Below, one piece after another: positions 1,753 to 18,102 of a stretch of DNA of 29,984 nt (within the stretch, counting starts at the first letter, position 1; every line of letters starts with the position of its first letter). The DNA is from Holosporales bacterium (GTDB taxonomy: Bacteria > Pseudomonadota > Alphaproteobacteria > RUG11792), in the NCBI GenBank assembly GCA_031286725.1, contig JAITTR010000088.1:1-29984 (forward strand), written 5' to 3'. A program made the position numbers and the translations under genes. Below the pieces are notes generated by a model. It did not search any database. It was not told where the DNA came from and saw nothing but the letters and a program-made list of their open reading frames with translations.

Positions 1753-2694
1753 TTGCGAAAGTATAAGTTTATAGACTTATTTTGCGGGATAGGAGGATTT
1801 CGAGTGGCTTTAGAGAGACGTGGTTTCGAATGCGTATTTTCAAGCGATATAGATCCATATGCTCAAGAAGCCTATATGAAAAATTTCGGGGAAAAACCGG
1901 AAGGAGATATAACCGAAATTTCAAATAACAGGATACCGAAACACGATATTTTATGTGCTGGATTTCCTTGTCAGGCATTCAGTATTTCCGGCAAAATGGG
2001 CGGTATCTCAGATTCGAGAGGCCGTTTGTTTTACGAAGTTATAAGAGTTGCGGAATACCGAAAGCCTTACGTTTTACTTTTGGAAAACGTCGGGAATATT
2101 TTGTCAATTGATGGCGGAAATGTCGCAAGCATAATAGAAAAGAAATTAGATCTGATAGGATACGATTTGCATAAGCATGTTTTAAATTCCTCTTTTTTTG
2201 GGGTGCCGCAGGCTAGAAAGAGAGTGTATTTTGTAGCCATAAGAAAGGATCTTAAGGACGAAATAAAATACGAAAGGCCGAAAGAAACCTTTCAAGAAAT
2301 ATTTTTGGAAGACGTTTTGGAGACTAACGTGGACAAAAGCCTTTTTTTAGATCGTCTTGACGTCAAGATGACGAAGGACGAAAGACAAGTCAAAAACGAG
2401 CTTAAGCCAATTAGAATAGGAATCGTAAACAAAGGAGGACAAGGAGAGAGAATTTATAGTCCTAAAGGCCATGCGATAACTCTTTCCGCATATGGCGGCG
2501 GAGCGGGGGCTAAAACAGGACTTTATCTTACCAAAGAAGGCATTCGTAGACTCTCTATAGCCGAATGCAAAAGAGCTATGAGTTTCCCAGAAGAACATTA
2601 TGTAATCGAAGGTTCTCAAGGATATAAACAGTTAGGTAACGCCGTCGCTCCCGATATAATTGCTCGCGTGTTGAACGGTATAGTCGGGATGTAA
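1753..2694 (+). CDS. DNA (cytosine-5)-methyltransferase, M.HhaI-like (predicted GCGC target)
   Basis: Motifs FIDLFCGIGGF (I), GFPCQAFS (IV, catalytic PC), ENV (VI), PQARKRVY (VIII), KQLGNAV (X). The TRD KGGQGERIYS.KG.AITLSAYGGG..AKTG.YL closely matches the M.HhaI TRD as I recall it. Confidence 0.95.
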   Translation: MRKYKFIDLFCGIGGFRVALERRGFECVFSSDIDPYAQEAYMKNFGEKPEGDITEISNNRIPKHDILCAGFPCQAFSISGKMGGISDSRGRLFYEVIRVAEYRKPYVLLLENVGNILSIDGGNVASIIEKKLDLIGYDLHKHVLNSSFFGVPQARKRVYFVAIRKDLKDEIKYERPKETFQEIFLEDVLETNVDKSLFLDRLDVKMTKDERQVKNELKPIRIGIVNKGGQGERIYSPKGHAITLSAYGGGAGAKTGLYLTKEGIRRLSIAECKRAMSFPEEHYVIEGSQGYKQLGNAVAPDIIARVLNGIVGM

Positions 2695-2699
2695 TTGAT

Positions 2700-3125
2700 A
2701 TGAACGATATTTTTGATAAGAAAACACGATCTTCTATTATGAAAAGCGTCAAATCGTCAAAAAACAAGTCCACGGAATTAAGACTAATATCTATTTTTAA
2801 TGAACTCCAAATTAAAGGATGGAGAAGAAATTATAAGATAAAAGGCAAGCCTGACTTTGTTTTTCAGAAAGCTAGAATAGCAGTGTTTGCAGACGGATGT
2901 TTTTGGCATGGACATAATTGCCGAAATACAACGCCCAAAGATAATGACAATTATTGGAGCGCTAAGATAAGCCGGAATAAAAAACGAGACCAGGATATTA
3001 CGAAATATCTCGAGCAAAAAGGATGGAAAATAATTAGGATTTGGGAATGCGAATTGCAAAATAAAAACAAGACGAACATAGAGTTAAGGCTCAAGCCAAT
3101 TGTAGAACAGTCCGTATATAAATAG
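2700..3125 (+). CDS. vsr: Very short patch repair endonuclease
   Basis: D.F....RS.IM..VKS..K.TE..L, KPDFVF....IAVFADGCFWHGH, W..KI.RN..RD, GW.IIRIWECEL; directly downstream of a C5-MTase, the typical context. Confidence 0.95.
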   Translation: MNDIFDKKTRSSIMKSVKSSKNKSTELRLISIFNELQIKGWRRNYKIKGKPDFVFQKARIAVFADGCFWHGHNCRNTTPKDNDNYWSAKISRNKKRDQDITKYLEQKGWKIIRIWECELQNKNKTNIELRLKPIVEQSVYK

Positions 3126-14039: not shown

Positions 14040-15113
14040 ATGAATTATAAATTTTTAATATTTACCGGGACTATGTGTATCTGTTCTTGTCCTGCTTTTT
14101 CAGCCGTTTTGGAAGACGTTTCAGAGAATATTCCCGTTACGGAGCCAGCTCAAGTTGAACAACCGCCACAACTGGGCGCTTCGCAACGGGTGGGAATTGG
14201 TGGCAAAAAGAAAATAAGCAGATCAGTTTTTGATCAATTTAAAATCCCCGAGCAAAAACAAAGAACTTGCCAAGAAGCTTTAGATCAATCTATTGCGGAT
14301 GGAAGCGGCATATTGGACTTAAGCGCTACTACGGATTTTGCTCAAAACGGTTGGGCTGCGATCGAAGCGTTTTTAAGGAAAATAAAAGAAACTAATTCGT
14401 TTGGAACATATTCTAAAAATCTCAGCGTAGATTTATCAAAAACTAATGTTACTCCCGAAATATTATCAATGTTAATGGAGCGAGCAAAATTAGATGGCCT
14501 AACTTTAATTTTGAATCTTTATTATAACAAAACTATAGGCGACGAAACGATTGACGTTATTGGATCGTTCTCGAACATCTACTCTATCATATTACGCGGA
14601 ACGAATATTAGCGACGTAGGTATAGCTAAATTCAACGCGATTTTAGAAATGTCGGGGATTGGAGTATTGCATAGCGTAGACGTATCCGAGACGAATGTTT
14701 CTCCAGGCGGAGCTAAAGTTCTGGCAGAGCAGATGCAAAAAGCGATTGAGGCATGGAAAATTCAGAATCCCACCTCGACTTATAATATTAAGGGAGCTGG
14801 AGTTATTTACGAAGAATCTTCATTCGTAAAAGTCCCTCGTAAAAGACAGGGTCTAAAGCCAAATCTAGCGGTGCAAAATACGCAAACGCCTAGTTCGTCA
14901 ACTATTGTCGCTTCACCGTCTCAGCCAACAGAGCAGGGAATATCTTTGGAAAGCTCTACGGAAATTATTTCTGATCAACAACCTCTCCTCGAAGAGGCTC
15001 CGGAGTCCATAGCTTTGAACACTCAAGAAGTATTGGAACCGGCGGGTCTAAACGCGGAAGTTCCTATAACGGATCCAGGCGTTGGTTCTGAACTTGTTGA
15101 GGTATTAGAATGA
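14040..15113 (+). CDS. Exported leucine-rich-repeat (RNI-like) protein with a low-complexity acidic C-terminal tail
   Basis: Sec-like signal peptide (...CPAFSA). About 4-5 LRR-like units (LDLSAT, VDLSKTNVT, LNLYYNKTIGDE, IILRGTNISDVG, VDVSETNVSPGGAK). The tail is S/E/P-rich. Confidence 0.6.
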   Translation: MNYKFLIFTGTMCICSCPAFSAVLEDVSENIPVTEPAQVEQPPQLGASQRVGIGGKKKISRSVFDQFKIPEQKQRTCQEALDQSIADGSGILDLSATTDFAQNGWAAIEAFLRKIKETNSFGTYSKNLSVDLSKTNVTPEILSMLMERAKLDGLTLILNLYYNKTIGDETIDVIGSFSNIYSIILRGTNISDVGIAKFNAILEMSGIGVLHSVDVSETNVSPGGAKVLAEQMQKAIEAWKIQNPTSTYNIKGAGVIYEESSFVKVPRKRQGLKPNLAVQNTQTPSSSTIVASPSQPTEQGISLESSTEIISDQQPLLEEAPESIALNTQEVLEPAGLNAEVPITDPGVGSELVEVLE

Positions 15114-15431
15114 TTTGTTTTGGATAAGAACATAGAAAACCCAATATATTTCGATATATAGATGGGTGACTTAGGACGCGTACCAGCTTTGTGTACCAAC
15201 GCAGGTTTCCTCAAAATTCTGTGCATGGGAAATTTTATGTGCCGAATTCTTTGTCAAAAATTCAGGTTAATTAATCGCATAAATCTTGTTTCGCATATAT
15301 CTGAAGAAATTAAAAATACCCCTGTTTTTAATTTATATTCGAAACCGAAAGCTAATAAAATCAAGTAAAGTCGGTTTGTTACTTTTATTTAATTAGGCGA
15401 TTAATGCATTTAAGTAAACGCTTTAACATAA

Positions 15432-15704
15432 TTATAACCAACCCAGTGGGTTGATAAAGCCTTTTGCTTCCCCATCTATTGGGAAGCGCTTGTTCAATAA
15501 TAGGCATTCTAATTCTCGCGGTTTATTTAATAATTCCCTCTTTATTATGATATATATTTTCTCGTCGTAATTTGCTTTATACATTATTTCTATATATGCA
15601 TTATTTTCTTCGTCTATTATTTAGCTACATATTTTTACAGCTTTTGTTAATTCTACTAATTTAGATGTTTTTTTGTTGTTCTCTTCTTTTTCTCTTGTTA
15701 TCAT
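15432..15704 (-). pseudogene. Degraded phage/plasmid-type gene fragment (weakly DUF927-like)
   Basis: A ~90-codon frame with one in-frame TAA at 15621-15623: ...KAVKICS*IIDEENNAYIEIMYKANYDEKIYIIIKRELLNKPRELECLLLNKRFPI. The family resemblance is impressionistic. Confidence 0.3.
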
Positions 15705-15823
15705 TTTTACAAGATCCTTTCTGAAAGGGATTTTGTTTCAATAGCTATATCTAAAAAGTATAGCTTCCGAAAGAAAGGATCTCAATCGTTTTTTAGAATC
15801 CAGATAAACTATTTTGGGGACCT

Positions 15824-15884
15824 TGGGGGCAACTTAGGGGACGTTTTCCAACAGCAACCCATTGGATTTCCTAAGTTGCCCCCA
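15824..15884. repeat. Perfect 15-bp GC-rich inverted repeat (stem-loop) followed by a T tract
   Basis: TGGGGGCAACTTAGG (15824-15838) / CCTAAGTTGCCCCCA (15870-15884), an inner CCAA/TTGG pair, then TTTTTTT at 15894-15900. Confidence 0.9.
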
Positions 15885-16022
15885 TGGGCCCAGTTTTTTT
15901 AATCGAAAAATATTTTTATATATTTTTAAATTTTTTGTTTTTGCCTATATATTTTTTAATGTAGCTGGGTTATAGGGATAGGCACATCCCTATATAATAA
16001 CAGAAGGGTCTAATAAAAAAAG

Positions 16023-16211
16023 ATGGCAAAAATGAAAGTAAAAATATTAGCGTTAACTACGTTATTAGTAGCAACAGTAAATTGCATGGAAATAGCATTA
16101 CCAAAGATGGAGGAAACGCCGGAATTTCAGCAACAAATAAGATATTACGAAAAGTATATCGAGTGTTGGTTTGAGGAAAAAGAAGAAATGAAGAAAAATG
16201 TTCGGAATTGA
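16023..16211 (+). CDS. Small hypothetical exported protein (62 aa)
   Basis: Basic N-terminus plus hydrophobic stretch (KILALTTLLVATVNC), charged remainder; preceded by a 9-bp hairpin at 15971-15994. Confidence 0.45.
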   Translation: MAKMKVKILALTTLLVATVNCMEIALPKMEETPEFQQQIRYYEKYIECWFEEKEEMKKNVRN

Positions 16212-16561
16212 GTAGGATAGTAGTAATGGCACGGGATAGAGATAAGAGGGGGGATAGTTGTTTTGAGTCCAAGAATACTCTCTGAAGGGAAACGATTATA
16301 TAATAAAGGAAACAACAGAGCATTGTATGTTTGCGAAAGACGTAAGGAATGCTTTGTTAGAGATTGGTATTGATTTAGAAAGGGGATATGAAATGAAAAA
16401 AGTAAATGTAATGATAGGATAATAGGAAACCTAGGCATGATGATGCTAGTAGATAAAAGAAAAAATAACATAGAAAACGTAGCTGAGTACTTCAGTCATT
16501 GCGAATCGAAAAACATAGAAGAAAATGATAATAAAGAGTTAAGTATTCGCCTAAAGAAAAT

Positions 16562-16827
16562 CTATCTTAAGGATAAATCCTTATCCCATATCCTAAAATT
16601 ATCGTTACCATCTTGTCCTTCTCGATACTTCTTAATCTCTTTTGTAGCTACTCCTATTGTTAACAGAAATATCCTCGTATCTCTTCTTTAGTTCTGGAAA
16701 CTCTATTTGTAATATATGCGCATGTTCTACTCTTATGTTTCCTCTATTTTATATTGACATCTCATATTTAGAGCATACTTCTTGGATTATACTCTTCAGT
16801 ATGTATCCCTATTTGGTTACGTAAAAT
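16562..16827 (-). pseudogene. tnpA: IS200/IS605 TnpA (Y1 HUH transposase) remnant
   Basis: Across frameshifts and stops: ILRNQIGI / LKSIIQEVCSKYEMSI*NRGNIRVEHAHIL (HUH) / EFPELKKRY / RGYFC / TIGVATKEIKKYREGQ. There is an internal deletion between HUH and EFPELKK, and a small hairpin TAAGGA-TAAA-TCCTTA at the 3' end. Confidence 0.8.
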
Positions 16828-17124
16828 AGTTCCGTATGCTCCCTGCCTACCTAGTATTATACTATTTTCTTTCTATTCTAACATATCTGTAGAAGTAAGT
16901 ATAAAATGTGGGATAAACATGCTATGAAACGCTGTTTGGTATTCTGCTTAAGCAAAATATCTTCTTGCTCAGAACTTAAATTCCCACTCTACATAAATTA
17001 CAGAGCATACTTTTTCTTTGTTTTATATGTGGTATTATACTATATAAATGGGCGGGGAAAGGTAGACGCGCAAAAATGAGTACGCCAACAATTGATTACA
17101 ACTTAATTATGGAATTTGCGCGTT

Positions 17125-17535
17125 ATGAACAATGTAAGCGAGAAAGTCATGGAAGAAGACAAAATTAGATATTTAGAAGCGATACAAGGCACAATTAATC
17201 GGATGGCAAGCAATTCATTTGCCATCAAGAATTGGTTTGTAGTGTTGTTTGGGGGATTGTTGACAATTTTCTTTAAGCAACATGAAATTTGGGTTCCAAT
17301 TGTTGGTATTGTTATAACAATATTTTTTGCGACTCAGGATGCTTATTATTTGTATTTAGAAAGAAGCTATAGAAACCTGTATGCTTTAGCGTTGAAAGAC
17401 GAAGTTGAATTGTTCGATATGGATACAACAAAAGTAAGAACGCATGTTTTATACGTCAAATCTTTTGGGTCGTTTTCTATAATAATTTATTTTGTTTCTC
17501 TTTTGTGTTTTGCTATCTTATTATTTATAAAATAA
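17125..17535 (+). CDS. TIR-associated membrane protein (3 predicted TM), putative effector
   Basis: KIRYLEAIQGTINRMASNSFAIKNW...QDAYYLYLERSYRNLY...FDMDT fits a family I recognise as sitting next to TIR genes. Three hydrophobic segments. Alternative ATG at 17149. Confidence 0.75.
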   Translation: MNNVSEKVMEEDKIRYLEAIQGTINRMASNSFAIKNWFVVLFGGLLTIFFKQHEIWVPIVGIVITIFFATQDAYYLYLERSYRNLYALALKDEVELFDMDTTKVRTHVLYVKSFGSFSIIIYFVSLLCFAILLFIK

Positions 17536-17556
17536 GCAGTTTTGAGAGTACATTTA

Positions 17557-18102
17557 ATGAAAAGACAGGTATTTTTTAGTTTTCACTATAAAGCTGACGC
17601 GTGTCGCACTGGTCAAATTAGAAACATAGGAGTCCTAGAGGGCGGAAAAATAGTTTCTGATAATGATTGGGAAAAAGTAAGAGGAGGTAGTTATGATGAT
17701 ATTCAACGTTGGATTAATGAGCAGCTAGACAAAAGATCTTGCACAGTTGTTTTGATTGGGACAGAAACCGCTAACAGGGATTGGATTAAGTATGAAATAA
17801 TGAAAAGCTGGGAACTAGGTAAAGGGCTTGTTGGTATATATGTCCACAACTTAAAAGATCCGCAAACCGGCTGTTCTCAGAAAGGAAAAAATCCTTTTGA
17901 CAATGTTATTCTTCAGAATGGAGCTACGCTAAGTTCTGTCATAAAACCTTATGATCCACTACCATCTGATGCGTATAACTGTATAAAAAACAACATCGAG
18001 AGCTGGATAGAGGAAGCGATCGAAAGAAGGCCAAGAAACATCCAGTTAATGCAAAGTAGTAGGCAATATCTATGCGAGAAAATATTTAGGAATGGCATGT
18101 GA
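17557..18102 (+). CDS. ThsB-like TIR-domain protein (MTH538/DUF1863 type)
   Basis: VFFSFHY, CTVVLIG.ET.NR.WIKYEIMKSWELGKGLVGIYVH.LKD, KGKNPFD match Thoeris ThsB motifs; the catalytic Glu is intact (E80 from the ATG at 17557). Confidence 0.92.
   Translation: MKRQVFFSFHYKADACRTGQIRNIGVLEGGKIVSDNDWEKVRGGSYDDIQRWINEQLDKRSCTVVLIGTETANRDWIKYEIMKSWELGKGLVGIYVHNLKDPQTGCSQKGKNPFDNVILQNGATLSSVIKPYDPLPSDAYNCIKNNIESWIEEAIERRPRNIQLMQSSRQYLCEKIFRNGM

Follow-up and report, generated by a model that had tools for sequence, protein, structure and literature searches.

A probable type V Thoeris-like gene pair in the reduced genome of a Holosporales bacterium

Which kind of system is formed by a TIR gene and a gene for a small membrane protein lying side by side in the genome of a seemingly intracellular bacterium, and is the membrane protein a new kind of effector? 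The window analysed here, the whole stretch of 29,984 nucleotides of contig JAITTR010000088.1 of a Holosporales bacterium (GenBank assembly GCA_031286725.1), carries such a pair. The initial annotation had proposed a Thoeris-like ThsB TIR signalling to a membrane effector of a novel class. Our analysis points to a probable two-gene Thoeris-type abortive-infection system of the type V kind (ThsB with ThsF), most likely acquired horizontally. The features of the locus are as follows.

15114–17124, no strand: ORF-poor upstream stretch, context only (no ORF longer than 108 aa)
17125–17535, + strand: thsF-like effector gene (136 aa from ATG; ORF and PADLOC PDC-M50A match)
17536–17556, + strand: intergenic spacer between the thsF-like and thsB genes (21 nt, operon-like spacing)
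17557–18102, + strand: thsB gene, encoding a ThsB-type TIR protein (181 aa; Pfam, PADLOC and PDB matches)

The ORF list of the window agrees with the first description of two close, uninterrupted genes on the same strand (17125–17535 and 17557–18102): the membrane protein gene comes first and the TIR gene follows after a gap of 21 nt. In homologous pairs the intergenic gaps are mostly about −30 to +40 nt. Alternative in-frame starts are present for the membrane protein gene (TTG at 17116 and ATG at 17149) and for the TIR gene (TTG at 17542). The G+C content of the two genes (0.31 and 0.38) and their GC3 (0.31 and 0.33) match the genome means (0.366 and 0.334, respectively). No convincing promoter or terminator was found for the pair; a single weak promoter-like site is located at 16878–16907, and shuffled sequences give more. 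An NCBIfam search returned no match for either protein.

As anticipated from its motifs, the second gene product is a ThsB-type TIR protein with its catalytic glutamate. It matches Pfam PF08937 (1.1e-24), the PADLOC models ThsB1 (1.9e-69) and PDC-M50B (1.2e-60, with residues 1–158 on positions 1–159 of a 162-position profile), PDB entry 8wcf (2.4e-48, full-length alignment) and the Bacillus cereus ThsB structures 6lhy and 9b7d (3e-20), with the catalytic Glu kept. This Glu is residue 80 (codon 17794–17796) and lies within the conserved W..YEI motif. We counted 1,179 homologues at E ≤ 1e-10; among the matches listed they are mostly 159–165 aa long with about 87% query coverage, and the closest is 65% identical. 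No cap2/cap3-like genes were seen near the pair, and a literature search on 8WCF and 8xMP found nothing relevant. At its C-terminus the protein carries an extension of about 25 residues (window 18030–18102), past the 8wcf alignment and past the ends of the 159–165-aa homologues, which may stem from the loss of an ancestral stop codon in an AT-rich genome.

TIR proteins that are 56–61% identical to that of the window are paired in two ways. Some adjoin genes of the same membrane protein family, as in Thermus islandicus (L047, 56%) and a Bacilli MAG (L049, 61%), and others belong to classical type I operons with a SIR2-STALD ThsA (L043–L046, 61%). The pair shares with type I Thoeris a TIR that is 61% identical to ThsB in SIR2-STALD operons, and differs from it in the effector, which is the NADase ThsA there and a membrane protein, without ThsA, here. 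In the 92%-complete assembly no SIR2_2 (PF13289) domain was found, and thus no SIR2-SLOG ThsA at the locus or elsewhere; ThsB_TIR and TIR_2 have no further match in it either. This leaves the membrane protein next door as the sole candidate effector.

This membrane protein contains three hydrophobic segments (residues 31–50, 55–73 and 108–136), and the three hydrophobic helices that had been read from the sequence are borne out by an AF2 model built on an 85-sequence alignment (pLDDT 94.9; helices 2–52, 56–90, 107–114 and 117–135). The predicted layout is an N-terminal cytoplasmic helix, a TM1–TM2 hairpin, a cytoplasmic helix and a C-terminal TM3. Pfam searches agree with the early remark that SIR2, SLOG, Macro and caspase domains are missing from the protein, DUF3278 at 0.052 being the sole Pfam trace. 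The family is large: an exhaustive HMMER search gave 2,683 clusters (50% identity), of which 290 reach E ≤ 1e-10; the best 150 of the 2,683 clusters are mostly 125–150 aa long, and the closest relative among the matches listed is 53% identical. PHROG 19896 also matches the protein (5e-20). A first group of nearly invariant residues lies at the end of helix 1, where it enters the membrane (L17, Q21, I24, R26, N30, S31, K35 and W37), and a second lies where the second helix of the hairpin leaves it (D72, Y75, E79, R83 and Y86, together with the invariant L76); S116 is nearly invariant as well. In the modelled antiparallel hairpin, the two groups would face each other at the cytoplasmic surface of the membrane. 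A Foldseek search of the PDB returned nothing at E ≤ 0.001, and VIA-align against 48,161 chains gave generic long-helix matches (Z up to 10.2), identifying no solved relative.

Both proteins can be placed in an existing catalogue. Four PDC-M50A models of PADLOC match the membrane protein, the best at 1.4e-27 (residues 9–134 on positions 1–129 of a 134-position profile). Adjacent genes on the same strand thus match both components of the PADLOC-DB v2 candidate PDC-M50 (PDC-M50A and PDC-M50B) over their full length, with the same two proteins, adjacency and strand. The pairing of a TIR with this membrane protein was therefore already catalogued. The catalogue describes no mechanism for PDC-M50, and we found no mention of it in the literature.

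A description of such a system is provided by a recent survey of TIR operons (Yirmiya et al., bioRxiv 10.64898/2025.12.03.692087), in which seven new types of Thoeris were validated. Type V pairs ThsB with ThsF, which spans the membrane with three helices and is annotated as DUF2270 (PF10028). Upon infection, 3'cADPR was produced by the TIRs of both protective Bacillus type V systems; in that of Bacillus thuringiensis, toxicity was specific to added 3'cADPR, and defence was lower in the presence of Tad1, a sponge for this molecule. AlphaFold3 predicts that ThsF assembles into a channel-like homo-heptamer whose protomer interfaces form positively charged pockets. Of the two protective systems, one was not triggered by 3'cADPR, and no protection was obtained from a third that had been cloned (Yirmiya et al.), so that signal and activity are not uniform within type V. 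The pair in the window resembles this type in being a two-gene combination of a ThsB TIR with a small three-membrane-helix protein, in having the same TIR kinds as partners of its membrane protein family, and in its sporadic occurrence in defence islands and on mobile elements. It differs in that its membrane protein lies below the PF10028 threshold, in that the validated systems come from Bacillus while the host here is a reduced intracellular bacterium, and in that the validated TIRs fall into other clusters, the TIR type of the window having been put in type V computationally only.

The novel effector class proposed at the outset therefore does not hold: the membrane protein maps to PDC-M50A of PADLOC and has the architecture of validated type V. 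The other half of that proposal, a Thoeris-like ThsB TIR signalling to a small membrane effector, is supported by genomic context, namely the missing SIR2_2 domain described above and the linkage to TIR genes. For the latter, a pattern scan with a 23-row subset of the alignment, over one genome per prokaryotic species, gave 391 loci, of which 80 were retrieved. A TIR gene lies within 300 bp of the membrane protein homologue in at least 59 of these 80 loci, which span many bacterial phyla and archaea; the neighbourhood survey that had been suggested thus confirms that the homologues are linked to TIR genes. In a sample of 400 Pseudomonadota genomes, the family was found in seven; the TIR gene is adjacent in six and the seventh is a fragment at a contig end. 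At two metagenomic loci (L001 and L002) the homologue immediately precedes a ThsB_TIR gene, and the surrounding islands carry RloB/AAA_21, HipA and recombinase genes. Plasmids bear the family too (121 records): an Escherichia coli IncC/IncR plasmid and a Vibrio plasmid both have a TIR gene adjoining the homologue. In a small Vibrio phage, a homologue lies beside a gene annotated as ThsB. This sporadic distribution, with seven of 400 Pseudomonadota and one of 24 same-family genomes, is as expected for a mobile defence gene.

Some loci of the membrane protein family have other neighbours. In two Bacilli MAGs (L049 and L050, 2038–5039), the pair is followed on the same strand by genes for an ADP-ribosylglycohydrolase (PF03747) and a Fic protein; the former might assist the pair by degrading or resetting an ADPR-derived signal. 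At three loci (L058, 28–2478; L104, 200–2488; L007, 54–1478) the homologue has no recognisable TIR neighbour, its partner being a 760–820-aa protein with weak WD40/β-propeller matches or a 474-aa protein without significant Pfam match. These partners may be alternative sensors, or TIRs too divergent to detect.

Does the membrane protein belong to the ThsF family itself? DUF2270 is its nearest Pfam family: PF10028 gives no match to the window protein, seven of its 85 relatives match at E < 0.01 (best 1.1e-5), and when nine relatives were run singly, eight matched in register with 14–22 bits, the cut-off being 25. In hhalign, the family aligns with the canonical 240-aa alphaproteobacterial DUF2270 at 79% probability over 38 columns covering the TM hairpin, and the protein superposes with a TM-score of 0.79 over 129 residues on an Atlas cluster consisting 100% of DUF2270. 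The TIR partners provide a further argument. In Table S1 of the survey, TIRs of several clusters are labelled 'DUF2270 - Type V' (Yirmiya et al.), and four TIR kinds so labelled there adjoin our membrane protein family, their likeness being judged by shared motifs. Cluster 2661146773 resembles the TIR of the window (NDWE..V.RGG, IKYEI and NPFD motifs shared), cluster 2734579397, which holds the validated B. thuringiensis TIR, resembles those of six loci (L076, L078, L114, L119, L032 and L034), and cluster 2742576382 resembles that of L008; cluster 2612357774 may correspond to the TIRs of L039 and L051, on a single five-residue motif. On these indirect lines and on the shared three-helix topology, membership of the ThsF family is very likely, though short of proven, as PF10028 does not match and the hhalign alignment is weak.

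Another family of small membrane effectors was compared with the protein. SLATT effectors (ThsH of type VII Thoeris and the 2TM effectors of CBASS) are likewise small helical membrane proteins encoded beside a signal-producing enzyme, with two TM helices as opposed to three here and another set of conserved motifs. No SLATT Pfam model matches the window protein (E ≤ 1) or any of its 85 relatives (E ≤ 0.01), which rules out a SLATT identity by sequence. One AFDB cluster named SLATT superposes on the protein with a TM-score of 0.79, a likeness at the level of the fold only.

The lack of a PF10028 match, the weak profile–profile alignment with canonical DUF2270 and the superposition of the SLATT-named cluster are what would be expected if the membrane protein were distinct from the validated ThsF, whether as a PDC-M50A family of its own, as a SLATT-like protein as in type VII, or as a member of the '3TM' class, a separate, putative effector class listed in the survey (Yirmiya et al., bioRxiv 10.64898/2025.12.03.692087). 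The logic of a TIR signal reaching a membrane effector would then be the same, in an unvalidated type, and the TIR product may be another one, for example canonical cADPR. We consider this quite unlikely: the negative SLATT searches of the protein and its relatives speak against it, as do the four 'DUF2270 - Type V' TIR kinds found beside the family, and the '3TM' entries examined use FISHSW-type TIRs, which are absent beside this membrane family in the loci examined.

If the pair is of the type V kind, its mode of action can be proposed by analogy with the validated Bacillus systems. Upon phage infection, Glu80 of the TIR would convert NAD+ into a cyclic ADP-ribose isomer. That close TIRs swap effectors between the type I ThsA and this membrane family suggests a common signal, and such swapping among related TIRs was also found by Yirmiya et al. 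Since type I and validated type V both use 3'cADPR, it is the most likely product, and we favour it with some reserve. The signal would then bind a conserved positive site on the cytoplasmic face of the membrane protein, at the junction between helix 1 and the helix following TM2, where R26, N30, S31, K35 and W37 lie opposite D72, Y75, E79, R83 and Y86 as candidate pocket residues. The juxtamembrane Arg/Lys cluster is a natural candidate for the nucleotide pocket, and an oligomeric ring for the form that breaches the membrane. Such a homo-oligomeric effector ring would finally compromise the membrane and halt phage replication. A four-copy complex prediction of the membrane protein scored 0.15 against a mark of 0.42, which weighs neither way on oligomerisation.

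We may wonder at this stage what a system of this sort does in such a host. The assembly comprises 820,620 bp in 110 contigs, with a G+C content of 36%. Among the other genes of the window are one for a TLC ATP/ADP translocase and a duplicated one for the ATP synthase b subunit. Genomes of the family measure 0.5–1.1 Mb, compared with 1.4–8.8 Mb for other members of the class. From the translocase, the 0.82 Mb assembly and the small genomes of the family, we infer a reduced, obligately intracellular host, probably an alphaproteobacterium. Among 24 same-family genomes, one other (G003) contains the membrane protein family, with a copy there frameshifted and lying beside a weak ThsB-like ORF, and the same-genus genome (64% complete) gives no match to the membrane protein. 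ThsB-type TIRs occur in four of 41 same-family genomes, the three others being truncated, frameshifted or interrupted by a stop. As TIR modules are so sparse and mostly broken in this family, the lineage seems to gain them sporadically and then to lose them. A search of the literature, non-exhaustive, showed no Thoeris in Rickettsiales or endosymbionts among the best-ranked matches. Among sequencing runs, none of RNA was listed as containing the sequence, and a single run shared a small part of its words.

The degraded modules of the sister genomes (L008 in G003:C1, L138 in G455:C3, L139 in G002:C37 and L140 in G006:C90) take several forms: a membrane protein gene with a frameshift, adjoined by a weak ThsB-like ORF; a ThsB that is truncated or interrupted by a TGA; and a 98-aa TIR fragment. 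In another, a FISHSW-type TIR lies in two pieces, after which comes a 151-aa, seemingly membrane-bound protein outside this membrane family.

The surroundings of the pair bear on whether it is under selection. The initial annotation had described the neighbouring ORFs as decayed and taken the intactness of the pair amid debris as a sign of selection. The first statement holds for the ORF-poor stretch of about 2 kb upstream (15114–17124) and fails for the flanking genes, which are intact on both sides: a 357-aa ORF and MutL upstream, and an SDF symporter, OmpH and LpxD downstream. With intact flanking genes and a pair whose composition is that of the genome, the second is not borne out. The stretch 15114–17124 contains no Rfam family and no recognisable pseudogene remnant, and gives no blastx match to the genes that flank homologous pairs. 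It includes a dispersed repeat (approximately 16538–16893) with blastn copies of 72–93% identity on contigs C42, C3, C85 and C50 and short matches in the same-family genome G008, and with no second copy within the window at E ≤ 1e-3. Neither a tRNA nor convincing flanking repeats mark island boundaries around the pair, and synteny with the same-genus genome breaks off at a contig end right beside it.

It is possible, and in our view rather doubtful, that an intact and selectively maintained type V Thoeris works in this obligately intracellular alphaproteobacterium of about 0.9 Mb. If it does, phage or mobile elements exert real pressure inside the eukaryotic host cell, and an endosymbiont family repeatedly gains and loses TIR immunity. 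The pair could also be a recent passenger without a current role, intact for want of time to decay, as might be suspected from the three broken ThsB-type TIRs out of the four in the family, from the frameshifted membrane protein gene beside the weak ThsB-like ORF of G003 and from the lack of a match in the 64%-complete genome of the same genus. We hold this to be unlikely, given that both ORFs are full length with all conserved residues present and that the closest relatives among the matches listed are 53% (membrane protein) and 65% (TIR) identical. The GC and GC3 of the pair, being those of the genome, further imply that the acquisition was not very recent, unless the donor had a similar composition. 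Bacterial TIR effectors that act on host cells exist, and the genome, with its TLC translocase and 0.82 Mb, looks obligately intracellular; one might imagine the TIR as a virulence factor that consumes NAD+ or interferes with TLRs in the eukaryotic host, as some TIR proteins of intracellular pathogens do, instead of acting against phage. This is highly improbable for a TIR of the short ThsB type without any extra domain, 56–61% identical to TIRs in Thoeris operons of free-living bacteria, and having as its conserved partner a small membrane protein that belongs to the bacterium.

Returning to the reading of the pair as a type V Thoeris system, the pairing was already present in PADLOC and the system type already validated and named; what is unusual is its presence in a tiny intracellular genome. 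Its value is modest and ecological, in that an apparently obligate intracellular lineage with a genome below 1 Mb carries an entire module of TIR-based immune signalling; for the discovery of defence systems it counts for little. The mostly degraded modules of its relatives form a small natural series on the phage exposure of reduced endosymbionts and on the rate at which their defence genes decay.

A few other elements of the window may be mentioned. A G+C-rich inverted repeat without Rfam match is found at 15817–15891 (22-nt arms, 91% complementary, 31-nt loop). The 357-aa ORF (14040–15113), without Pfam match, has a hydrophobic N-terminus resembling a signal peptide. It is 41% identical to its same-genus homologue (L137, G001:C77:13503-14714), compared with 63–71% for the flanking housekeeping genes, and that homologue is inverted and located at the very end of its contig; the ORF may mark a rearrangement breakpoint next to the Thoeris pair and encode a secreted protein that evolves fast. 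Finally, and with no obvious restriction enzyme seen, positions 1753–3125 encode an intact C-5 cytosine DNA methylase (PF00145, 5.7e-78) followed by a Vsr very-short-patch repair endonuclease (PF03852).
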